From: an uncultured Fibrobacterota bacterium | Lineage (GTDB): Bacteria; Fibrobacterota; Chitinivibrionia; Chitinivibrionales; FEN-1185 | Direction of reading: 5' to 3' | NCBI GenBank assembly: GCA_963753345.1 | Contig: CAVWBU010000027.1 | Span: 256,001-320,000 of the forward strand | Length of the DNA: 64,000 bases | Shown here: positions 52,536-64,000 of the stretch, one piece after another | Layout of the letters: every line of letters begins with the position of its first letter | Position numbering within the stretch: position 1 is the stretch's first letter | The notes under the pieces: model-generated | Seen by the model: only the letters and a program-made list of their open reading frames with translations | Told to the model about the DNA's origin: nothing | Databases searched by the model: none | Translations under genes and position numbers: made by a program

Positions 52536-53656
52536 CGAGTGTGTCGATCACAAATGCTATATCTGCGTCCGACAGCCCGGAATGCACCGAGAACCGGACG
52601 CGTGCCTTGCCCTGCGGGACCGTGGGCGGCCGGATGGCCGGCGCCTTAATGCCGCGCGTACGAAGAAAAGCTGAGAGCTCGACGGCTTGTTTATCGCTTC
52701 CCGCAAGGCACGGCACGATCTGCGTCGAGGAATTAAGCGTGTCGAAGCCGCAATCGCGGATTCCCTCTCGCAGAATACGCGCTTTTGTCAATAGTGCCGG
52801 GCCGAGCCCGGGGTGTTTGCGGCAGATGACGCACCGCGGCAAGGTCATGCGCCAGCACCGACTGCGGCAGCCCCGTGGAATAGACAAGGCTGCGCGCCAG
52901 GTTGACAAAACAGTCTCTGAAGAACGAATTGCCCGCAAAGAAACCGCCCAATCCGGCAACGGCCTTGCTGAGCGTTCCCATCACAACGTCGATCCCGCTC
53001 TCCACGCCGCATTCCTCCACCAACCCGGCAAGCGTTTTCCCGAACACGCCCGTTGCGTGAGCCTCGTCGACCATCACCATGCAGCCGAACTGCTTTGCAA
53101 GCCCGCAGATGTCGGCAAGCGGCGCCGTGTCGCCGTCCATGCTGAACACGGAATCGGTGACAATGAGCCGTTCCTTCTTTGTGGAGACCGCAAGTCTGTC
53201 CCTTAGATCCGTCATGTCGCAATGGCAATACCGCACGAGCGCCGCGCCCGACAGGCGCACGCCGTCGAGGATCGAGGCGTGATTGAGCCGGTCGCAGAAG
53301 ACCTCGGTGTCACGCCCGCACAGGGCCTGAATGATGCCCAGGTTCGCGCATACCCGGAATTAAACACCAGCGCCGCCTCGGTTTTTTTCCACTGGGCAAG
53401 CTCCAGTTCGAGTGCGTCGTAAAGCGGCGAACGGGTTTCGATGAGACGCGAGGCGAGATTTCCCGAAAAGCAAGAATCCGCCAGACGTTCTGCCTCCGAC
53501 CTGACCTCGGGATCGGTATGCAGCGAACAATAGCTGTTGGTCGGCGAGATCGAGGCGCGCGCCGCAAGGCGACGGGCCCATTGTCCTGAACAGGTCGAGG
53601 CTTTTTCTGCTGTCAAGTTCCGCGTCCAGGCGGTCGTATATAGGCGAGTCATTCAT
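52510..53656 (-). CDS. bioF: 8-amino-7-oxononanoate synthase, frameshifted
   Basis: ASRLI, FNSGY, DSVFSMDGD, VDEAHATG, GTLSKA, AIRPPTVP across four frames. Confidence 0.85.
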
Positions 53657-54989
53657 GGAGAATGTCTCTAACTGCTTTGGTGGTGACCGCAAACATGGTA
53701 CTGATCTGTTCTTCGGTGATAATATACGGCGGGACAAAATACAGCACGTTTCCCAGGGGACGGATGAGAACGCCGTTTTCCAGCGCTTTTTGCGCGATAC
53801 GGAATGGCACGCGTTTTTCCGGAAGAAAAGGCGATTTGGTTTTCCTGTCCGCCACAAGTTCGATTGCGCCAATCATGCCGATGGACTTCACGTCCCCGAC
53901 CTCATCAATGCCGCGCAAGGCTTCAAGCCCTTTTCTGAAAAACTCCATCTTCGTTTCGAGCGACCCAGGGATATTCTCTTCTCGCATTATGGCAAGTGTT
54001 TCGCAGGCCGCTGCGGCAGCAAGCGGGTTCCCGGTAAAGGAGTGACCGTGAGCCAGTTCCTTTCCCGCAAGGTGATTGCCGCAGAATGCCGCATAGACCT
54101 CCTCGCGCGCAACGGTCGCCGCCATGGGCAAACAGCCGCCCGTGAGCCCTTTTGCAAGGCACATGATGTCGGGCGTTACGCCGGCATGCTCGCACGCGAA
54201 AAGTTTTCCGGTGCGGCCGAAACCGGTCGCCACCTCATCGGCAATGGTGAGCACGCCATGGACTTTACAGGCTGCAAAAAGGCGCTTGAGCACCTTGGCC
54301 GGATACACGCGCATGCCTGCCGCGCCCTGAACCATGGGCTCAAAAATGCACGCAGCAATCGTGTCGCCCTTTTCGTCAAGGATGCGTTCAAGCGATTTCA
54401 TGCATTCGGCGCCGCAGGTCTCTTTTTCCATGCCGCAAGGGCAGCGGTAGCAGTATGGTGCGTCCGCGTACCACTGCGACTTGAACGCTTTGTGAAAGAG
54501 CGAGTGATACGCGGGAATGTTTCCAACCGACATTGCCCCGAGCGTGTCACCATGGTAGCCGCCGGAGAGCGAAACAAAGGCGGTGCGCGGTTCTCCCCTT
54601 GCCGCCCGGTATTGCAGCGCAATTTTGAGCGCCACCTCAACCGCTGTGGAACCGTCGTCGGAATAAAAGATGCGCGCAAGTTCCTTCGGCAGCAGCGCCG
54701 CAAGCCTGTGCGAAAGTTCGAGCGCAGGCTCCGAAATAAACCCTGCCATAAGGACGTGTTCAAGTTTGTCCGCTTGATTCTTGACAGCCCTGATTATCCG
54801 CGGATGGCAATGCCCCAGAACCGACACCCACCATGATCCTATTGCGTCAAGGTAGCGCCTTCCGTTTTTATCGAAAAGGTAAACACCCTCGCCGCGGGTA
54901 ATCACGGCCGGCGGATAGTCGCGGACGTCATCCGAACACGTGAAGGGAAACCAGAGACGGTTGAAGGGGTCAGCGGAGGAGTTCATCAC
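53649..54989 (-). CDS. bioA: Adenosylmethionine-8-amino-7-oxononanoate aminotransferase
   Basis: LWFPFT, SWWV, GSTAVEVALK, YHGDT, DEVATGFGRTG, AKGLTGG. Confidence 0.95.
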   Translation of the reverse strand: MMNSSADPFNRLWFPFTCSDDVRDYPPAVITRGEGVYLFDKNGRRYLDAIGSWWVSVLGHCHPRIIRAVKNQADKLEHVLMAGFISEPALELSHRLAALLPKELARIFYSDDGSTAVEVALKIALQYRAARGEPRTAFVSLSGGYHGDTLGAMSVGNIPAYHSLFHKAFKSQWYADAPYCYRCPCGMEKETCGAECMKSLERILDEKGDTIAACIFEPMVQGAAGMRVYPAKVLKRLFAACKVHGVLTIADEVATGFGRTGKLFACEHAGVTPDIMCLAKGLTGGCLPMAATVAREEVYAAFCGNHLAGKELAHGHSFTGNPLAAAAACETLAIMREENIPGSLETKMEFFRKGLEALRGIDEVGDVKSIGMIGAIELVADRKTKSPFLPEKRVPFRIAQKALENGVLIRPLGNVLYFVPPYIITEEQISTMFAVTTKAVRDILHE

Positions 54990-55671
54990 AAAACTCCTTG
55001 GTCTTCTTCAAACAGCGGCATCCATACGGCACCACGAGAAACGGCACGTTTCGTGCGTAATTGCGAAGCGTTCTGACGTTGTCGCGGTAGATAAAATCAT
55101 CTCGGACATTATTACGGTTATTGATAACCAGGCCCGCCAGCGAAAGGCCGGCGGCCTCAATCGCGCACATGGTGAGAAACGTATGGTTGAGCGTGCCCAG
55201 TTCGGGAGTGGTGACGAGAACGACGGGCAGCTTGAGCAGCTCCATGAGATTGACAGTGAGCACCGATGGACCAAGCGGAACCATCACTCCCCCTGCGCCC
55301 TCAGCGAATACGCATCCGCCGCGCATACCGGGAAGGCTTCGTATCATGTCAAGACTTCGTTTGATTTTCCGGATTGAAACTTGCGCGTGCGCGCGCTGTG
55401 CAGCCAGATGCGGTGAACACGCGGGAACAAACCGGTACGGAACGTGAATGTGATCCGCGCCAAGGACCAGACCGCCCGACTTTCTGACATATTCAAAGTC
55501 CGGAGCGCTAAGCATGCCGTCTTTCAATTGCCTGCATCCGGTTTGCACCGGTTTCATGTACGAAACCGGAACAAATGCGGCCATCGCCTCAACGAGCAGC
55601 CGGCTCACAAATGTTTTTCCGACGTCGGTGCCGGTGCCGGTGACAAAAAATCCGATTGACTTAGCCTTCAT
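54970..55671 (-). CDS. bioD: Dethiobiotin synthase
   Basis: VTGTGTDVGKT, KPVQTG, SPHLAA, EGAGG, LGTLNHT. Confidence 0.95.
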   Translation of the reverse strand: MKAKSIGFFVTGTGTDVGKTFVSRLLVEAMAAFVPVSYMKPVQTGCRQLKDGMLSAPDFEYVRKSGGLVLGADHIHVPYRFVPACSPHLAAQRAHAQVSIRKIKRSLDMIRSLPGMRGGCVFAEGAGGVMVPLGPSVLTVNLMELLKLPVVLVTTPELGTLNHTFLTMCAIEAAGLSLAGLVINNRNNVRDDFIYRDNVRTLRNYARNVPFLVVPYGCRCLKKTKEFCDELLR

Positions 55672-55677
55672 ACGAAA

Positions 55678-56442
55678 TCATTTCTTGATTGCAAGTCCAT
55701 AGGCGACATTGATGGAGAGCGGAACCCCGGAAGGCTCGTTATGCCTTTCTCCATATTCCCTGCACAGTCTTATTATTTCCTGCAGAGAAAGGCGCTTCCC
55801 CTCGACCGCGGTGCTGCCCGTCTCGCTCATGTACTTGAGCGCATCCATGGCAGAGGCAAAGCGGTACTGCTTTGCAAAGGATAAATACGTCCGGCAGTCG
55901 AATCCCGATGCGGCCAACAGCGCCGAAAAATCGTCGCGCGAAGGAAGACGTACCGGAACGGAAAGATTGCGCTCCTGGCGCAGGGAAAATATTTCGGCAA
56001 AAGAACCTTGCAGAAATGCGGCGAATACCAGCGCGCCGCCGGCAGCCAGAATGCGGTGCAATTCCCCCATGCCTTTGGATGGATCCGCCAGCCAGTGTAA
56101 CACCGAGGCGACCACTGCGCCGCCGAACACCCCGCTTTTGAACGGCAACCCCTCAATGTCGGACTGAACCGCGCCGGAGCTTCTGCGGCAACGCAGCATT
56201 CCGTATGCCAGATCGGTGCGCATCAATCTGACAGGAACCTTGTGATCGATAAGCAACCCTGCCATGCCGCCTGCGCCGCAGCCGGCGTCAAGCCAAGGCA
56301 GGCTTAGCCAGCCCGCGGTCTTTACAAGAGGAACAAGCATTGCAAGGATCTGTTTCTGGATATACGCTTCCTCCTGGTATCCGTTTGCTTTTGCGGAAAA
56401 TGTCGCGGCAATGCAGCGTTTGGACGGAATTTGTACAATCAT
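55678..56442 (-). CDS. bioC: Malonyl-ACP O-methyltransferase
   Basis: IAATFSAKANGY..IQ, LDAGCGAG, LHW. It is the first gene of the bio operon. Confidence 0.85.
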   Translation of the reverse strand: MIVQIPSKRCIAATFSAKANGYQEEAYIQKQILAMLVPLVKTAGWLSLPWLDAGCGAGGMAGLLIDHKVPVRLMRTDLAYGMLRCRRSSGAVQSDIEGLPFKSGVFGGAVVASVLHWLADPSKGMGELHRILAAGGALVFAAFLQGSFAEIFSLRQERNLSVPVRLPSRDDFSALLAASGFDCRTYLSFAKQYRFASAMDALKYMSETGSTAVEGKRLSLQEIIRLCREYGERHNEPSGVPLSINVAYGLAIKK

Positions 56443-56864: not shown

Positions 56865-58013
56865 ATGTGCCCATCAAACTTCACTATAAAATTTCCTGTT
56901 GCCATTGTTGTGTCTGCACTTGCATGCCTTGCATTGTTATCGTGCAGCGATTGGATATACAAGCCGAGTCAATTCCTTACCCCGGTACCACCGCCGCCGC
57001 CCAATGCATTTGTTTCCAAAGACAGTCTTTCCGCTTTTGTCGGTACGCAAAATGTCAAATTGGCATATACGAAAGTGATTGTCGGTGGAACTCAACTGCT
57101 GTATTTTGTTGATTTCAATGATAGCTCGGTTACTCCCAAATTGCTCAAGAAGCCGAGCGACAAGCCGGATTGGGCCGCCTGGTGCCCGATAATTTCTCCT
57201 GACGGTAACCTTGTGACATACTATCTTGTTGATCCTTCAAACATCAAGCACGCGGCGGCTTATTGCCAGAAGCTCGATACCAGCGCGGTGCCGAATCTTA
57301 TCGACGATCCGGGCAGCGATCCTCATTTTTTCAATGATATCAACAAAAATTTATACATTACCTATGCCGATACGACGGATGAGGTGGACGCTACTTACAG
57401 CATGTTGACAACCAAGCATACCTATCGAGTGCAAATCAGCGCCAGTACAGGGGCGAAAACAGGAACAAAAGATTCCATTGCGCCGTTCCCTTTTTATGGC
57501 GGCGTGTCGTACGATGGCGCCTACATTTGCACAGGATATATTAACGCTTATATCTTCAATATTTCCACGCAGACCTTTTTCTCTGTCAATACCGGTAAAC
57601 AGACCTGCAATCCTTCGACGACGCCGGACTCGCTGCTCACCGGCCGCATGATGTTCCTGAACATCGGCGGCATCCAAAACCTGAATAACATGGGCGCGCT
57701 GACGGTAACCAACCTTCCGGAACATCAGTATGTTCTGATTGCGGACACCGCCAACAATCTTGTCAACAGTTTCAACGTCGGCCAGATCCTGCCCGACTAT
57801 GCAAGCGGTGAATGGCAATGTCCGAAATGGTCGAACATTTCGAATTTCTTCTGCGCGCTAGCAACAAAATCAACGAGCGGCCAAACCATTGTCTACGACT
57901 GTTTTATCGTCTCGATTGCTCCGACTACAAGAGCCTTGTTGCTGAATGTCAAGCCCGACCTGCTTCAATTCAACAGCACATCAAAACCCTATGTTTATAT
58001 AGGGGGAAAATGA
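56865..58013 (+). CDS. Lipoprotein with TolB/PD40-like beta-propeller
   Basis: LALLSC lipobox; PIISPDG, PKWS. Confidence 0.65.
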   Translation: MCPSNFTIKFPVAIVVSALACLALLSCSDWIYKPSQFLTPVPPPPPNAFVSKDSLSAFVGTQNVKLAYTKVIVGGTQLLYFVDFNDSSVTPKLLKKPSDKPDWAAWCPIISPDGNLVTYYLVDPSNIKHAAAYCQKLDTSAVPNLIDDPGSDPHFFNDINKNLYITYADTTDEVDATYSMLTTKHTYRVQISASTGAKTGTKDSIAPFPFYGGVSYDGAYICTGYINAYIFNISTQTFFSVNTGKQTCNPSTTPDSLLTGRMMFLNIGGIQNLNNMGALTVTNLPEHQYVLIADTANNLVNSFNVGQILPDYASGEWQCPKWSNISNFFCALATKSTSGQTIVYDCFIVSIAPTTRALLLNVKPDLLQFNSTSKPYVYIGGK

Positions 58014-59204
58014 CCTCGAATAGCGCGGGCAAAAACATGCGGATTCCGTTTTTTAACGGGTTTCTATTCCTGGGGATGTTTTTGCCGGCAATCATTTTAC
58101 TCACGATGTTTACCCTCGACCGGAACGGCCGCGCCATTGTCACAACAACGCCGTGGGCCTGTGTCGGGGGCTGCGGCGCGGGAGGATCGGGCGGCGCCGG
58201 GGGTGCCACGGCAAAATGGATAGGAAACGGGGTCAGCGGCGGACTTCTCGACATCCAGGCAATGTATTCTTCGACCGCGACAAAAACATCCGATGCAAAG
58301 GCCCTTGAACTTCGCTTCAGCATCAAGCCGACGTATACCGGCGTTCTGGCGCTCACCGTTCCGTTTTCATCAAAATCAGGTTCCTTGCAAGTGTCGGCCC
58401 TCTACTCCCCTACGACGGGGCTTATCAATAACGGTCTGGGCGATCTCCGCGTGGACTACATAGGCGCCTTCGGTCTGTCGGGCGACTTCAGCTATGATGT
58501 TACGCTCTCGGTTCCGACCGGTTCCTACACCGCAACGACCGGCGAGGAAAAGGCCCTGCAATATCTTCCGACCAGCCTGCAACTCGGCGCCGGCATCTAC
58601 AATCTCAGCCTTGATCTTGGAAAAACAATCGACATGGACAAGAGCCTGGTGCTGATTGATCTCGTCTATTCGTATCCTTTCAACATCAACTTTTACGGAA
58701 AAGACCAATATTACAATTTCACTCCGCAGCAGAAAGACATGATGACCAGTGCGGAAAAGAAACGGTTCTATTATTACTTCAAACCCTATGGAGAAAACGA
58801 TCTTGGCGGGTACACTCCTCCCAGCATCATGGCGTCGGCGATTTTATGGATATAGGGGGATAGAGAATTTTGTCCATTCCTTCGGGCTGATGTTTTCCGT
58901 CCCGCTCGGAGTCGATTGGATTCCTTCCATGGGAAACGGAACTCCGTATGATCCTACCCCGGACCCGGATAATCAAGTCTGGAACGCCACCTTATGCTAC
59001 GGGCTCGAATTCACCCGGTCCAATTTTCCGATATTCATCGCGGCGTATCTTCCAATCCATGCAAAGACCGCTTCTGCGACAAATGCCCAGGCAGGAAATC
59101 CGTACGATCCGACCCCCATGGAAGACTGGTCACGCGGGCCGGACTGGAACGACGTGTTTCATCGCTGGTCGGTGTTTGTCGGCGTAAAAACATCTTTATT
59201 CTAA
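58010..59204 (+). CDS. Putative outer-membrane beta-barrel protein, frameshifted near 58845
   Basis: Signal-like N-terminus, CVGGC motif, GLGDL, PTG..LQLGAG (transporter/MetA-pathway barrel-like) and a terminal Phe. Confidence 0.55.
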
Positions 59205-59224: not shown

Positions 59225-59899
59225 ATGAAAAAATCAATGGCGTTTGCAATCGTATCGGCACTCTGTGCAATGACATTTCTGGGGGTTTCCTGCGGTAACC
59301 CAACGTCGGTAAAGACCCCTATTGCCATTACAAAACCCGGTGCAGGACAAAAAGCCGCGGCAGGAGACACGCTGCTGGTTGCCTGGACCCAACCGGTTGC
59401 CAGTCCGAAGATTTCTTACAATTACAACTTTGGGGCCGGGTGGCAGCAATTCGCGTCCGTTATCCCGGTTGATAATTATTCCGCAAAAGCCGTTCTCCCC
59501 ATAACCTCATTTACCGACAGTTTTCAGATCATGGTCGAAGACAACGGCAATACGTATGCCGCAGGGACCAGCGCTCTCTTTTCCGTCAAGTACATCGTTA
59601 TCACGTCTCCGACGGCCGGACAGACTTTTTCCGTCGGTCAAACCGTCACCATAACATGGAAAGACACTCCGGCCAAGCTGTCCTCTCTTCGAGTCCGACT
59701 GTCGACAGACGGCGGCAGGTCATTCGGCGAGATGTTGACCTCATCGATAAGCGATCTTTCGCAGACATCCTACGCATGGGTCATCGGTTCAGAACCGGGA
59801 GGGTCCTTTTCCTATCCAAGTTCCTCGTGCGTCCTGAGAATCCAAGACTACACCAACGACCAACTGTTTGACGTCACCGGCACTTTTAGCGTGCAGTAA
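59225..59899 (+). CDS. Lipoprotein with tandem Ig-like domains
   Basis: FLGVSC lipobox; repeated ITxP..G..VTITW units; LSTDGG. Confidence 0.7.
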   Translation: MKKSMAFAIVSALCAMTFLGVSCGNPTSVKTPIAITKPGAGQKAAAGDTLLVAWTQPVASPKISYNYNFGAGWQQFASVIPVDNYSAKAVLPITSFTDSFQIMVEDNGNTYAAGTSALFSVKYIVITSPTAGQTFSVGQTVTITWKDTPAKLSSLRVRLSTDGGRSFGEMLTSSISDLSQTSYAWVIGSEPGGSFSYPSSSCVLRIQDYTNDQLFDVTGTFSVQ

Positions 59900-59938
59900 A
59901 GGAAACAGCGGACGCGCCTGCAGGCGCGCTTGTGCATC

Positions 59939-61039
59939 ATGAGAACGGCACCAACAACACTGTGCATCCTCGGCTGCGGCGGTTTTATCGGCTCGCACCT
60001 GTGTGAACGCATCCTCGCGGACACAGACTGGCGCATTAGCGGCGTGGACCGGAATCCGGCGAAAATTTCCTCATTCCTCTCCCATCCAAGATTTACGTAC
60101 GCCAACGTGGACATCGACTCCGCGGATGCCGTCGACGAATACCTGCGCACCAGCGACGTCGTGGTCTCGCTCGTTGCGCTGTGCAACCCGTCGCTGTACA
60201 ATACGGTCCCGCTCCAGGTGATCGACAGCAATTTTTCCAGGCCGCTCAAAATAGTGGAACGCTGCTCAACGCTGCGAAAGCGTCTGGTGCATTTCTCCAC
60301 CTGCGAAGTGTACGGAACAACGGTTTCCTTCCGGGCCGGCATGCCGTTCAATTCGAGCACCGACGTTTTCCGCGAGCAGACCACGCCGCTTGTGCTCGGA
60401 CCCGTGACCGCGCAGCGATGGACCTATGCGTGCGCAAAGCAGCTTCTTGAACGCGCCATTTTCGCGCACGGCGTGCAGAACGGCCTGGACTATACTATTG
60501 TACGGCCCTTCAATTTTATCGGCCCCCGCATGGACTTTCTGCCCGGCGTGGACGGCGAGGGCGTTCCGCGCGTGCTCGCCTGCTTTATGGACGCGCTCTT
60601 GTCGCAGAAGCCGCTCAAGCTGGTTGACGGCGGGAGAAACCGCCGAACGTTCACCGATATCCGCGATGCCGTCGACGCCGTCATGGCGATCCTTGCGCGT
60701 CCCGAAGAATGCCGCCGCCGCATTTTCAACATAGGCAATCCGGCGAACGAGACGACCATTGCAGGTCTGGCGAAAACAATGATCGCCCTGTACCGCGACC
60801 TTCGTCCCGAACTGGCGGATTTTCCCTATTGCACCCAGACCGTCACGTCAATGGAGTTCTACGGCGCGGGCTACGAAGACTCGGACCGCCGCGTGCCCGA
60901 CATTTCCGTGGCACGAGAGGCGCTTGGGTGGAAGCCTTCCGTTTCCCTCAAAGACTCGCTCCGTTCGGCAATGGAGTTTTACATCAAGGAATACAGCCGC
61001 GCGCGGGCGTGCACGCCCGCATGCACGGAGGCAGTCTGA
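59939..61039 (+). CDS. UDP-apiose/UDP-xylose synthase-like SDR
   Basis: GCGGFIGSHL, ALCNP, STCEVYG, QRWTYACAKQL, VRPFNFIGPRMDFLPGVDGEGVPRVLACF, FYGAGYEDSDRRVPD match plant AXS motifs. Confidence 0.85.
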   Translation: MRTAPTTLCILGCGGFIGSHLCERILADTDWRISGVDRNPAKISSFLSHPRFTYANVDIDSADAVDEYLRTSDVVVSLVALCNPSLYNTVPLQVIDSNFSRPLKIVERCSTLRKRLVHFSTCEVYGTTVSFRAGMPFNSSTDVFREQTTPLVLGPVTAQRWTYACAKQLLERAIFAHGVQNGLDYTIVRPFNFIGPRMDFLPGVDGEGVPRVLACFMDALLSQKPLKLVDGGRNRRTFTDIRDAVDAVMAILARPEECRRRIFNIGNPANETTIAGLAKTMIALYRDLRPELADFPYCTQTVTSMEFYGAGYEDSDRRVPDISVAREALGWKPSVSLKDSLRSAMEFYIKEYSRARACTPACTEAV

Positions 61040-61767
61040 TTGACAAGAAGGTATCGGTCGTTGTGCCGGCATACAACGCGGCCCGCACTCTCGAAGAGGT
61101 TATTGCGCGGATTCCGCTCAAATTATGGGAATCCATATCGCGGGTGTGGATCATCAACGACGGCTCCACAGACGGCACGCGAGGGGTTGTCGACGCGCTG
61201 TGCGCCGCGAACGGAAGGATAAGGGCAAGACATTTCGGCATCAACCGCGGCTACGGCAAGGCAGTGCGCGAAGGACTTTTCCAATGCCGGGAAGATGGAT
61301 GCGATTTTGCCGTTTGCCTTCACGCCGACGGCCAGTATCCGCCGGAGGCGATTCCCGGGTTTGTCGAAACAATGGCCGACCGCGGCATCGACCTTCTGCA
61401 GGGCTCGCGCATCGCTTCAGGCACTGCCCTGTCGGGAGGAATGCCGGTTTACAAATATGTTGCCAACAGGATTCTGACGTTCTTTGAAAATATCGTATTC
61501 GGATTGTCGTTAAGCGATTATCACAGCGGCATGCTGCTGTACAGCAGAAAGGCTCTCGATTCGCTGCCGTTTGACCGCTTGAGTGCGAGTTTTGATTTCG
61601 ACCTCGAAGTGATAGCGGTGTGCCGCGCCAGGGGCCTTGCAATTGCCGAACTGCCGATTCCAACGCGGTATGCCGGTGAAGTGTCGCATCTCAACCCTGT
61701 AACCTATGGCCTGCGGGTGCTGCGCGTGATGGCGGAATATCTGGCCGGAAGGTACAACACGCTATGA
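61021..61767 (+). CDS. GT2 glycosyltransferase (DPM1-like)
   Basis: VVPAYN, NDGSTD, NRGYG, HADGQY, GSR, ELPIPTRY. Confidence 0.9.
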   Translation: MHGGSLIDKKVSVVVPAYNAARTLEEVIARIPLKLWESISRVWIINDGSTDGTRGVVDALCAANGRIRARHFGINRGYGKAVREGLFQCREDGCDFAVCLHADGQYPPEAIPGFVETMADRGIDLLQGSRIASGTALSGGMPVYKYVANRILTFFENIVFGLSLSDYHSGMLLYSRKALDSLPFDRLSASFDFDLEVIAVCRARGLAIAELPIPTRYAGEVSHLNPVTYGLRVLRVMAEYLAGRYNTL

Positions 61768-62666
61768 TCCTTGTAACCGGCGGAACCGGCGCCATGGGCA
61801 GCGTGCTTGTGAGGATGCTCGCGGAACAAAAGAAGAAGGTCCGCGTGATCTGCCTGCCCAACGACCCGTTTACGGCCCGGATCAAGAATATCGCCTTTGA
61901 CATCCGATATGCCGACATTGCTAACAAAGTTGACATCCGCAATGCGTGCGAGGGTGTGGAAACCGTGTACCATCTGGCGGCAATCATCATCTCAAAGGAT
62001 GAGAAAGCATTTACGGACATCAATGTTGAGGGAACGAGAAACATCGTTGCCGAAGCGGCACGGTCGGGAGTGAAACATTTCATCTATGTTTCTTCGGCAT
62101 CGGTTACCTATCCCGCCCCTACGCCCTATTCGCTTTCGAAACGCGCGGCAGAGGAAATCGTCAAAACGTCCGGCCTCGTCCACACGATTCTCAGGCCGAC
62201 GCTTGTGTACGGAGAGAAAGGCGGCCAGGAATTCGACATGTATCTTGACTACCTGAGGAAATTTCCGGTCGTCCCCTTCATCGGGAACGGCGCCGCGCTC
62301 AAGCGGCCGGTGTATGTGGAGGATGTCAACGCGGGTATGCTTGCCGCGTGCGGCAACGAAAAATCATTCGGTAAGACCTACAATCTCAGCGGCGGCGAGG
62401 CAATCAGCATGATCGGTTTTACGCGGTTGTGCCTGCGGCTTCTTGGAATGGAACGCAAGCCGGTGCTGTGTCTCCCCGTGTGGCTGTGCAGGGTCATCGC
62501 CTTTCTCATGAGACTTGTCATGCGCGACCCGCCGCTCAAATGGCAGGTGATTGCGGGAATTATTCAGGATGCAAACCTCGATCCGTGGGAGGCTATGGAA
62601 GATCTGGGATATGCGCCGATGAAAGTTTCGGAAGGATTGCCGAAGGTGTTTCCGAGGAAAGCGTAG
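61764..62666 (+). CDS. NAD-dependent epimerase/dehydratase (SDR)
   Basis: VTGGTGAMG, HLAA, YSLSK, LRPTLVYG. Confidence 0.88.
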   Translation: MILVTGGTGAMGSVLVRMLAEQKKKVRVICLPNDPFTARIKNIAFDIRYADIANKVDIRNACEGVETVYHLAAIIISKDEKAFTDINVEGTRNIVAEAARSGVKHFIYVSSASVTYPAPTPYSLSKRAAEEIVKTSGLVHTILRPTLVYGEKGGQEFDMYLDYLRKFPVVPFIGNGAALKRPVYVEDVNAGMLAACGNEKSFGKTYNLSGGEAISMIGFTRLCLRLLGMERKPVLCLPVWLCRVIAFLMRLVMRDPPLKWQVIAGIIQDANLDPWEAMEDLGYAPMKVSEGLPKVFPRKA

Positions 62667-62760
62667 ATGCGTGAAAGCGTCGATGTGTGAATGCGTTGAT
62701 GCGTGTATGCGAAAATTACCGGTATTTTCTTACTTTGTCTCTTTGTCACTTTGTTACTTT
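62666..62760. repeat. Degenerate octamer repeats
   Basis: gatgcgtg-type units followed by xactttgt-type units. Confidence 0.5.
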
Positions 62761-62776
62761 TCTACAGGAGGTCTTT

Positions 62777-63313
62777 ATGAAACGTCTCATGACCGGTGTT
62801 TTCGCCTTTTCATTCGCTCTCATGCTTTCATTTTCAGCTTGTGCGCAATCAGATTCGGCTGCCGCTGCCAAGCCGGCCCCCAAGTCCGCAAAGACTGTTA
62901 AGGCGGAAAAAGCATCTCCGGCCGCTGCCGCAAAAACCACGCCGACAAAAGCCTCCGGCGACACCCTTGTCCTCATCGCGCGCATCACCGAAATCCCGGG
63001 CAAATTCGCGTCCAACGACCTGTACAATTATGTTTACGTCATGAAATACCGGGTCCTGTCGGTGGTGAAAGGCGCGTACAAGCCGCAGGAGATTCTTGTG
63101 GGACACTACAATCCGCTCATTCCCCGTGCCCAGATCAAGGACGCCATGAAGAAGAATGTCGCGGGCACCGTGGAAAAATTCGAAGTGGGCGGCAAGCAGA
63201 AACTGTGGCTTGTCACGCCGATTGAAAAAGTGTGGAAGGACGCGGTGGACGACGAATATTCCGATTCGGACCTTGGTAAATACTACGCCGTGCGGGCCGA
63301 CATCGTACAATAG
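62777..63313 (+). CDS. Secreted protein with Ala/Lys/Pro-rich linker
   Basis: AGGAGG RBS; signal MKRLMTGVFAFSFALMLSFSACA. Confidence 0.7.
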   Translation: MKRLMTGVFAFSFALMLSFSACAQSDSAAAAKPAPKSAKTVKAEKASPAAAAKTTPTKASGDTLVLIARITEIPGKFASNDLYNYVYVMKYRVLSVVKGAYKPQEILVGHYNPLIPRAQIKDAMKKNVAGTVEKFEVGGKQKLWLVTPIEKVWKDAVDDEYSDSDLGKYYAVRADIVQ

Positions 63314-63352
63314 CACGATCCACCACACCGGACATCGCTGGGAGAAACTCGC

Positions 63353-64000
63353 ATGGTTTTTTCATCGCAGATATTCCTCTTCTATTTTCTGCCGTTTTTT
63401 CTGACGGTCTATTTCCTTCTTCCGTTCAAGTGGAAGGGAATGTACATCAAGAACGTCTGGATTACGGTGATGAGCTATGTCTTTTACGGCTGGCTTGTAC
63501 CCTGGTTCACGCTTCTTCTTTTTATCACCTCCTACAAAGACTATTTGTGCGCCCAGATCATTGTGAAGCCGGGCATAAAAAAAGAGCGCCGCAAATTCGC
63601 GCTCGTATTCGCCATCGTCACCGACCTGCTGTTGCTCGGGTTCTTCAAGTACTATATGTTTTTCATGGGCGGCGTTAACGGCCTGCTGCACATTTGCGGC
63701 GGTCCGACCCACACGTTTCATATTCTGCAGGTGCTTCTGCCTTCGGGCATTTCCTTCTATACGTTCGTGGCGCTTTCGTACGTTATTGACGTTTACAGAG
63801 GCGATGCGAAGCAGGCGCCTTCGTTCGGCGCGTTCTCATGCTTTCTCGGCCTGTTTCCCCACCTCATCGCAGGCCCCATCATTCGCTACCAGAGCGTGGC
63901 CGACCAGCTGATGGAGCGCGAGCATTCCATTGACAAGTTCGCAAGCGGCGCCGCCATCTTTGTCCTTGGTTTCGCAAAGAAGATCCTGCTTGCCGACACG
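63353..64000 (+). CDS. MBOAT O-acyltransferase, AlgI/PatA-like (runs off the window)
   Basis: Hand translation MVFSSQIFLFYFLP..SYVFYGW..LGFFKY..LPSGISFYTF..YVIDVYRG..FPHLIAGPIIRY..GFAKK. Confidence 0.92.
   Translation, partial: MVFSSQIFLFYFLPFFLTVYFLLPFKWKGMYIKNVWITVMSYVFYGWLVPWFTLLLFITSYKDYLCAQIIVKPGIKKERRKFALVFAIVTDLLLLGFFKYYMFFMGGVNGLLHICGGPTHTFHILQVLLPSGISFYTFVALSYVIDVYRGDAKQAPSFGAFSCFLGLFPHLIAGPIIRYQSVADQLMEREHSIDKFASGAAIFVLGFAKKILLADT

Follow-up and report, generated by a model that had tools for sequence, protein, structure and literature searches.

A Cys-type UDP-apiose/xylose synthase homologue coupled to a Dpm1-like glycosyltransferase in Fibrobacterota suggests a lipid-carrier route for apiose

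Background

Does a wetland bacterium of the phylum Fibrobacterota make apiose, and what would it use this sugar for? The question is raised by a stretch of 64,000 nucleotides (nt) of its assembly (contig 27, positions 256001-320000; hereafter, the window), in which a plus-strand run of genes extends from about 56.8 kb to the window end. Within this run, a gene for a homologue of UDP-apiose/xylose synthase (UAXS or AXS; UAS in bacteria) overlaps a gene for a family 2 glycosyltransferase (GT2), and the latter overlaps a gene for a short-chain dehydrogenase/reductase (SDR). Positions past the window end are given on L002, the window genome's own stretch read further (L002 3841 is window position 58841).

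Apiose has long been regarded as a plant sugar. In bacteria, three synthases and one apiosyltransferase, of family GT90, have been characterised, and as far as PMC5607165 and PMC6193724 go, no structure or function of a bacterial apioside is known; one of the synthases, XpUAS of Xanthomonas pisi, was shown to make UDP-apiose (PMC5607165).

An earlier note on this DNA described the synthase as "plant-type". We believe that the protein is better understood among its bacterial homologues, and that its conserved coupling to a Dpm1-like GT2 within an envelope cassette suggests a lipid-carrier route for apiose. What we observe are the family assignments, the conservation of residues, the clade membership, the coupling of the genes and their co-occurrence. 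The conserved AXS-GT2 pair offers a concrete, cultivable route to bacterial apiose use and to testing for a lipid-linked apiose donor.

The synthase

The gene at 59939..61039 (plus strand; an alternative TTG start lies at 59930) encodes a stand-alone SDR of 366 amino acids (aa). Compared with all solved structures, the protein matches AtUAXS1 of Arabidopsis best (6h0n; 352 bits, E 3e-104), ahead of ArnA (249 bits), PbgP3 of Burkholderia (215) and human UXS (2b69); E-values of 1e-104 to a solved UAXS put the match far past chance, and the 74 bits to 2b69 leave the protein outside the UXS family. It is an extended SDR with a GCGGFIGS motif, the catalytic residues T121, Y163 and K167 (T139, Y185 and K189 in AtUAXS) and a match to PF01370 (E 1.9e-41). 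In related strains, 12 nt of the spacer before the start codon, at window position 59919 (L002 4919), are absent in three of four runs.

The AXS motifs listed in the earlier note are all present: ALCNP (residue 80), STCEVYG (120), QRWTYACAK (159), RPFNFIGPR (189) and SDRRVPD (315). The signature residues that distinguish UAXS from ArnA and UXS are tabulated in PMC12820599, and all ten are kept (C82, Y87, T121, C122, E123, R160, Y163, K167, N192 and R318). The first of them, within ALCNP, occupies the site of Cys100 of AtUAXS, which is key to proton transfer and ring opening according to PMC12820599 and is replaced by Ala in ArnA and UXS; C122, E123, Y87, R160, N192 and R318 correspond to Cys140, Glu141, Tyr105, Arg182, Asn214 and Arg341. 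Taken as a pair, the two cysteine sites are Ala/Ser in ArnA (Ala393/Ser433) and UXS. A loop common to the window protein and UAXS is absent from ArnA (11 gap positions in the structure-hit alignment).

Among the homologues from our loci, the first cysteine is present in all 79 scored, XpUAS included (one partial locus of the 80 was dropped for length); the second site is Cys in 23 and Ser in 56, among them XpUAS.

The protein is about 47% identical to the plant enzyme (a hand count, 166/352 aligned) and 48% identical to XpUAS over 363 residues, and the published bacterial enzymes are 43-49% identical to AtAXS1 (PMC5607165). Since the plant and XpUAS identities are at the same level, "UAXS-like" suits the protein better than "plant-type", which is too specific, and this part of the earlier description has to be given up. 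For the same reason we dropped a recent transfer of the gene from a plant to a bacterium: plant identity is no higher than identity to XpUAS.

Phylogeny

The alignment of 124 rows combined the homologues from the 80 named loci (kept of 578), representatives of 50% clusters, the C-terminal domain of E. coli ArnA and the window protein. The tree was built from 63 rows (43 locus homologues spanning the phyla, 17 representatives, two ArnA-type outgroups and the window protein) over 354 columns and rooted on ArnA. In the careful IQ-TREE run, a branch with UFBoot 96 and SH-aLRT 92 sets 45 Cys-type rows off from the rest, and this split is found in 97% of 200 bootstrap trees; the quick tree gives the same split at 94/90. 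A single one of the 354 columns defines the Cys-type group, and one long branch (P0183) sits at the base of the clade.

The Cys-type side holds the window protein, XpUAS and the protein of Alloyangia (Yangia) pacifica; the 18 Ala-, Val- or Pro-type rows all lie outside it. XpUAS, the only proven enzyme in the tree, is represented by locus L079, whose gene order, including a 4-nt overlap with the next gene, is that of the published X. pisi operon. The window protein falls into a subclade of 15 rows (Fibrobacterota with one row from Planctomycetia and one from Cyclobacteriaceae), separate from the 22-row subclade of XpUAS. Judged by its sequence, the window enzyme is best placed in the bacterial UAS clade, as a member new to it. 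Longer proteins of 625-746 aa (representatives P0122, P0126 and P0131) can also contain a Cys-type AXS-like domain as a fused part.

A reader guided by database names might propose a different enzyme: a stand-alone decarboxylase of the ArnA or RsU4kpxs type, which would yield UDP-4-keto-pentose and UDP-xylose for an Arn-like lipid-carrier pathway, the second SDR reducing the 4-keto sugar. The protein does pass the cut-off of model NF008872 (310.7 bits against 294); many homologues, which JGI calls UDP-apiose/xylose synthase, are named by NCBI after the NF008872-type enzyme; an ArnC-like GT2 comes next, and the extra SDR could be a ketoreductase. Yet the Ala-type rows range from 275 to 535 bits, the bona fide NF008872-type rows among them score 386-535, and proven XpUAS, at 276, stands near the window protein. 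The score being close to the cut-off and XpUAS lying at 276, we take the pass to be marginal spill-over; for this clade, NCBI probably has the wrong name. The active site also differs (Cys/Cys at the Ala393/Ser433 sites of ArnA and RsU4kpxs), the UAXS match is about 100 bits above the ArnA match, and the clustering with ArnA C-terminal domains that was looked for in the tree was not found; the Cys-type clade is a separate one. The formyltransferase domain of ArnA is absent, as the earlier note had it: the ArnA model NF005998 aligns at its positions 316-649 alone, and the open reading frame (ORF) upstream encodes an Ig-like lipoprotein. The cassette has no aminotransferase or formyltransferase. 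An ArnA-type or RsU4kpxs-type enzyme thus appears improbable to us, and we continue with a UAXS-like synthase.

The coupled glycosyltransferase

The GT2 gene (61021..61767, plus strand, 248 aa) overlaps the synthase gene by 19 nt; its ATG was placed at 61021 because translation from 61018 begins R-M. The SDR gene (61764..62666, plus strand, 300 aa) overlaps it by 4 nt, the SDR ATG lying over the GT2 stop. Both overlaps had been noticed before, and by this arrangement the three genes form a predicted translationally coupled trio.

The GT2 belongs to the Dpm1/ArnC/GtrB/PpgS class. Pfam gives PF00535 (E 2.2e-27), and the NCBIfam matches, led by PpgS (66.5 bits against 370), AglJ, a dolichyl-phosphate hexose transferase and ArnC, are all far under the equivalog cut-offs. 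When the single sequence was searched against the PDB, ArnC and P. furiosus DPMS were the only matches; the profile of its 34-member family gave DPMS 79 bits, ArnC 58 and GtrB 56, other GT2 proteins being aligned in the N-terminal third only. Among the Foldseek matches listed for its AF2 model (pLDDT 91.7), all down to rank 19 are ArnC, DPMS or GtrB (TMq 0.60-0.76, with about 240 of the 248 residues covered), and the next ones are soluble glucosyl-3-phosphoglycerate synthases (GpgS). Profile and model agree that the predicted catalytic domain is closest to those of the polyprenyl-phosphate glycosyltransferases DPMS, ArnC and GtrB, in keeping with the earlier description of the GT2 as DPM1-like. 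The probable task of the GT2 is to load a sugar onto a lipid carrier in the membrane.

It may be asked whether this carrier is polyprenyl phosphate. With UDP-apiose made as proposed, the GT2 could instead act directly at the cytoplasmic face on a different membrane lipid or on an acceptor that is soluble or a protein, the periplasmic neighbours being only loosely related to it. The model has C-terminal helices and no transmembrane (TM) helices, and the D-x-D motif of DPMS and ArnC is replaced by H101-A-D103, in which the His is invariant (34/34) and which aligns to D-A-D of DPMS. PpgS is likewise without TM helices. The distance from every equivalog cut-off, the rank of the soluble GpgS proteins directly after ArnC, DPMS and GtrB, and the lack of a GT-C transferase or flippase in the cassette point to such an acceptor as well. 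On the other side, every solved structure that it matches significantly by sequence, and each of the top structural matches, is a polyprenyl-phosphate transferase, and these matches cover the C-terminal helices too; in addition, the linkage to secreted and outer-membrane proteins is kept in three phyla, which argues for an extracytoplasmic destination. We therefore consider an acceptor other than polyprenyl phosphate unlikely and retain the polyprenyl-phosphate carrier.

The SDR, third in the trio, is an extended SDR similar to 3β-HSD, NDUFA9 and HpnA (PF01073 and PF01370; GxxGxxG and YxxxK motifs). Its best matches are chain P of 9g83, a bacterial "NAD-dependent epimerase/dehydratase", and NDUFA9 subunits of complex I; in NCBIfam, HpnA and 3β-HSD-like models match the N-terminal half only. 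Our guess is that it works at the membrane surface on a sugar linked to a lipid.

Conservation of the pair

Window proteins were searched by tblastn against the 80 loci. The GT2 lies directly 3' of the synthase gene in 42 of the 75 loci, from six named phyla, whose sequence runs on for 800 nt or more downstream. By phylum, the GT2 occurs in the AXS locus in 39/52 cases in Fibrobacterota, 3/3 in Planctomycetota, 3/3 in Myxococcota, 1/1 in Bacteroidota, 1/1 in Binatota and 2/14 in Pseudomonadota; none was seen in the five loci of Cyanobacteriota, Thermodesulfobacteriota and Actinomycetota. Counted anywhere in the 80 loci, the GT2 is found in 50, the SDR in 29, the MBOAT gene in 17, an AlgX-like gene in 24 and the barrel gene in 18 (23 by clustering), and the full set (AXS, GT2, SDR, MBOAT, AlgX and HYP246) stands in one locus in 15/80. 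Myxococcota have the order SDR, PD40, barrel, AXS, GT2, AlgX fusion, transglutaminase-TPR protein.

An even sample of 151 Fibrobacterota genomes was also surveyed (E<=1e-60 for AXS, E<=1e-40 for the GT2). The synthase is found in 103 and the GT2 in 100; 98 genomes have both, five AXS only, two the GT2 only and 46 neither. The tallies of the two genes by family are nearly identical (for instance, 0/8 for each in family f2). These counts describe the co-occurrence and are not statistics, because relatives are not independent. In the distant family f9, where the AXS homologues are 41-45% identical, the cysteine and the adjacent GT2 are kept in the two genomes read (L091 and L092). The bacterial UAS-type gene is thus a common, vertically kept trait of the phylum (103/151 sampled genomes), tied to one particular GT2 of the Dpm1-like kind and, in many cases, to a cassette for envelope modification.

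The literature searched yielded no description of AXS coupled to a Dpm1-like GT2 in an envelope cassette and no paper on apiose together with Fibrobacter*; among the matches listed, none concerned lipid-linked apiose by title.

Xylose as a possible transferred sugar

The genome has a canonical UXS elsewhere (contig C34, L088:1483-2469, minus strand; 440 bits to human UXS1) and two Ugd-like dehydrogenase genes. With these at hand, the genome does not require the AXS gene for UDP-xylose alone; another enzyme serving only that product is superfluous, which favours apiose as the purpose of the gene. Beside the UXS gene, the leuS ORF has only 307 aa and covers the LeuS model no further than position 263; it may be another assembly frame break of the kind described below.

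This context bears on a further alternative, namely, that UDP-apiose is made together with UDP-xylose and the GT2 uses the latter. The cassette would then install xylose, or an epimer formed after the SDR such as L-arabinose, through polyprenyl-phosphate-pentose, with apiose being a by-product or used elsewhere. The SDR gene right after the GT2 gene would fit, since its product could epimerise a lipid-linked pentose, for which DprE1/DprE2 provide an analogy. The characterised UAS enzymes yield both products (PMC5607165), and the GT2 beside UAS in X. pisi consumed UDP-xylose (PMC6193724). With a canonical UXS present, however, a second and leaky route to UDP-xylose that is kept with the GT2 in 98/151 genomes is hard to explain, and XpXylT of X. 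pisi shows no relation to the window GT2 (E 0.10). We give xylose little credence as the transferred sugar and keep apiose as the more likely one.

The remainder of the cassette

Upstream of the synthase gene, all on the plus strand, lie three genes for envelope proteins. The first (56865..58013) encodes a lipoprotein of 382 aa with a lipobox, an ORF whose homologues stand 5' of AXS (cluster 4, in 17 loci); no Pfam family matched it, and we suspect a TolB-like propeller, to judge only by SPDG-type repeats. The second (58019..59204; cluster 2) encodes a putative outer-membrane barrel, split in the assembly, which is homologous to a 397-aa protein ending in F; this cluster comprises 23 loci, Planctomycetota and Myxococcota among them. 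The third (59225..59899) encodes the Ig-like lipoprotein, 224 aa (Pfam Kre9_KNH and Big_7), kept 5' of AXS in close relatives. Just 5' of the cassette, on the minus strand (53649-56442), are ORFs for a bioA-like aminotransferase, a bioD-like protein and a bioC-like methyltransferase, named from their translations alone.

Downstream of the SDR gene, an ORF at 62777..63313 (plus strand) encodes a small secreted protein of 178 aa with a signal peptide and an Ala/Lys/Pro-rich linker, which stands 5' of the MBOAT gene in 14 loci (cluster 6). It belongs to no Pfam family, and its place in the operon is like that of AlgF, homology to AlgF not being shown. The last ORF of the window (63353..64000, plus strand, cut by the window end) is the 5' part of an AlgI-like MBOAT gene, of which the full 476 aa are found at L002:8353-9783 (PF03062, E 9.1e-26); the MBOAT announced in the earlier note is therefore there, and an MBOAT/AlgX-type O-acylation set follows. 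Beyond the window, the run goes on with an AlgX-like SGNH protein of 545 aa, then another AlgX-like gene and a PD40 propeller. The O-acetylation set of the operon thus consists of the MBOAT (PF03062) and two PF16822 matches, in AlgX-type SGNH proteins with DTHW and GDSF motifs.

In relatives, the second AlgX-like gene is a fusion of 659-696 aa, and in several Fibrobacteria loci without an adjacent GT2 it comes immediately after AXS. Before its AlgX-like SGNH domain the fusion has an N-terminal domain of about 300 residues (L005:14472-15596, P0290 residues 1-375; L002:11550-12680 in the window genome), modelled at pLDDT 84 with a core above 90. For this domain, in a 669-aa protein, Foldseek found no match in the PDB at E<=0.001, the wide search with VIA-align reached a best Z of 4.0, ESM Atlas gave no usable match, and Pfam recognised the AlgX part alone. 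The domain accompanies the AXS gene in Fibrobacterota, Myxococcota and Planctomycetota.

A scan for promoters and terminators was at chance (7 where 8.0 were expected, and 19 where 18.3 were), and within it a 12-pair hairpin 3' of the PD40 gene is the sole element that resembles an operon end. Chitinispirillaceae-type loci (L030, L034, L038, L039 and L040) have a PAP2 phosphatase and an IspH-UbiA fusion about 1-4 kb 3' of AXS-GT2, and a monofunctional peptidoglycan transglycosylase lies divergently 5' in 12 loci; these neighbours hint at a connection with polyprenyl or cell-wall metabolism.

Assembly quality

According to tblastn with the intact 397-aa protein P0291 of L005, the barrel gene lies in two frames, with a frame change of 1 nt near 58841. 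The second AlgX-like gene (L002:11550-13550, outside the window) is also split over frames. Contigs of close relatives, 95-99% alike and taken from two studies of peat and sediment metagenomes, are without one base at L002 3841, 12200, 12307, 12442/12455, 12673/12679 and 13449. Several of the frame-change sites border homopolymers, and window position 58841 is at a homopolymer edge. For these two reasons the splits are probably assembly indels, real frameshifts in this strain being the alternative. Against the same contigs, no indel was found inside the AXS, GT2, SDR, MBOAT and first AlgX genes.

Discussion

We propose the following scheme, in which every chemical step, the choice of donor, the lipid acceptor and the final target are what we infer from the observations above. 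UDP-glucuronate would come from the Ugd-like enzymes of the genome. The AXS-like enzyme would oxidise it at C4, open the ring, decarboxylate and re-close it, giving UDP-apiose and UDP-xylose. The coupled 248-aa GT2, free of TM helices, would capture the labile UDP-pentose, most likely apiose, at the membrane and transfer it to polyprenyl phosphate, and the coupled NDUFA9/3β-HSD-like SDR would act on the product or on a related lipid-linked intermediate. After flipping, the sugar would decorate an envelope polymer, which the adjacent MBOAT/AlgX-like machinery would also O-acetylate and which would be tied to a dedicated outer-membrane barrel.

Parts of this scheme deserve different degrees of confidence. 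That the AXS-like enzyme makes UDP-apiose in vitro is, given its residues and clade, very likely in our opinion. The whole chain from UDP-apiose through polyprenyl phosphate to an O-acetylated envelope polymer falls somewhat short of an even chance, and several points tell against it. The second cysteine varies, so that the residues alone would not fix the ratio of products. The 15-row subclade of the window protein is separate from the one that holds XpUAS, and we infer the UDP-apiose activity of its members from sequence. The rows of the tree do not include plant UAXS, GrUAS (Geminicoccus), CeUAS (Entotheonella) or RsU4kpxs (Ralstonia), Geminicoccus and Entotheonella being outside the 80 loci kept of 578. 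In 25 of the 80 AXS loci there is room in the flanks and no such GT2, and in several genomes AXS and the GT2 are far apart. As for the GT2 itself, H-A-D stands for D-x-D and TM helices are missing; since UAXS enzymes also make UDP-xylose, it could be a xylosyltransferase, and in X. pisi the characterised apiosyltransferase is a GT90 enzyme, not a GT2, and the GT2 uses xylose (PMC6193724). Finally, the cassette has no GT-C transferase or flippase, the nine PMT_2 and two GtrA matches all being on other contigs, and no polymer synthase.

It is tempting to go further and to suppose that most Fibrobacterota, with scattered Planctomycetota, Myxococcota and others, make polyprenyl-phosphate-apiose for the extracytoplasmic decoration of an O-acetylated envelope polymer with its own barrel, and that the domain without a recognisable fold in the AlgX fusion is a new periplasmic glycan-modifying module. 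We regard this extended proposal as doubtful; if it were true, polyprenyl-phosphate-apiose would be the first apiose donor linked to a lipid in any organism.

Comparison with known systems

The arrangement of an MBOAT gene followed by AlgX-type SGNH proteins recalls AlgI/AlgJ/AlgF/AlgX and PatA/PatB; the difference is that one AlgX-like protein here has the N-terminal domain of about 300 residues without a recognisable fold, in a cassette that includes no polymer synthase.

With ArnC of the Arn pathway, GtrB, DPMS and PpgS/Rv3632/Rv3779, the GT2 has in common the catalytic domain and the interface helices, and the logic of a decarboxylase followed by a GT2 is that of Arn. The window GT2 differs by the lack of TM helices, by H-A-D and by the lack of an adjacent flippase or GT-C transferase, and its donor would be a furanosyl branched pentose. 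The decarboxylases themselves, i.e., the ArnA C-terminal domain and RsU4kpxs (NF008872, NF005998), belong to the same SDR subfamily as the window enzyme and have the same expected substrate, and the NF008872 cut-off is just passed; the window enzyme has Cys/Cys in place of Ala393/Ser433, no formyltransferase domain and a clade of its own.

Plant UAXS/AXS1 (6H0N/6H0P) is the best solved match and has the ten signature residues, both cysteines and the long loop in common with the window enzyme, whereas identity is about 47%, the N-terminus of the window protein is shorter, and there is no sign of a recent plant origin.

In the apiose operon of X. pisi (UAS, XpApiT of GT90 and XpXylT of GT2; PMC6193724), UAS is likewise translationally coupled to a glycosyltransferase. 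The partner in the window is a Dpm1-like GT2 unrelated to XpXylT, and no GT90 turned up in the conserved neighbourhood.

The comparison also takes in the bacterial UAS enzymes XpUAS, GrUAS and CeUAS (Smith & Bar-Peled 2017, PMC5607165). The window protein is 48% identical to XpUAS and falls with it into the Cys-type clade; it also has the length of these stand-alone enzymes and is about as distant from the plant enzyme as they are. It stands in the other subclade and keeps the second cysteine that XpUAS is without; and whereas the account in PMC5607165 has no conserved operon around the bacterial UAS genes, here the GT2 partner is conserved.

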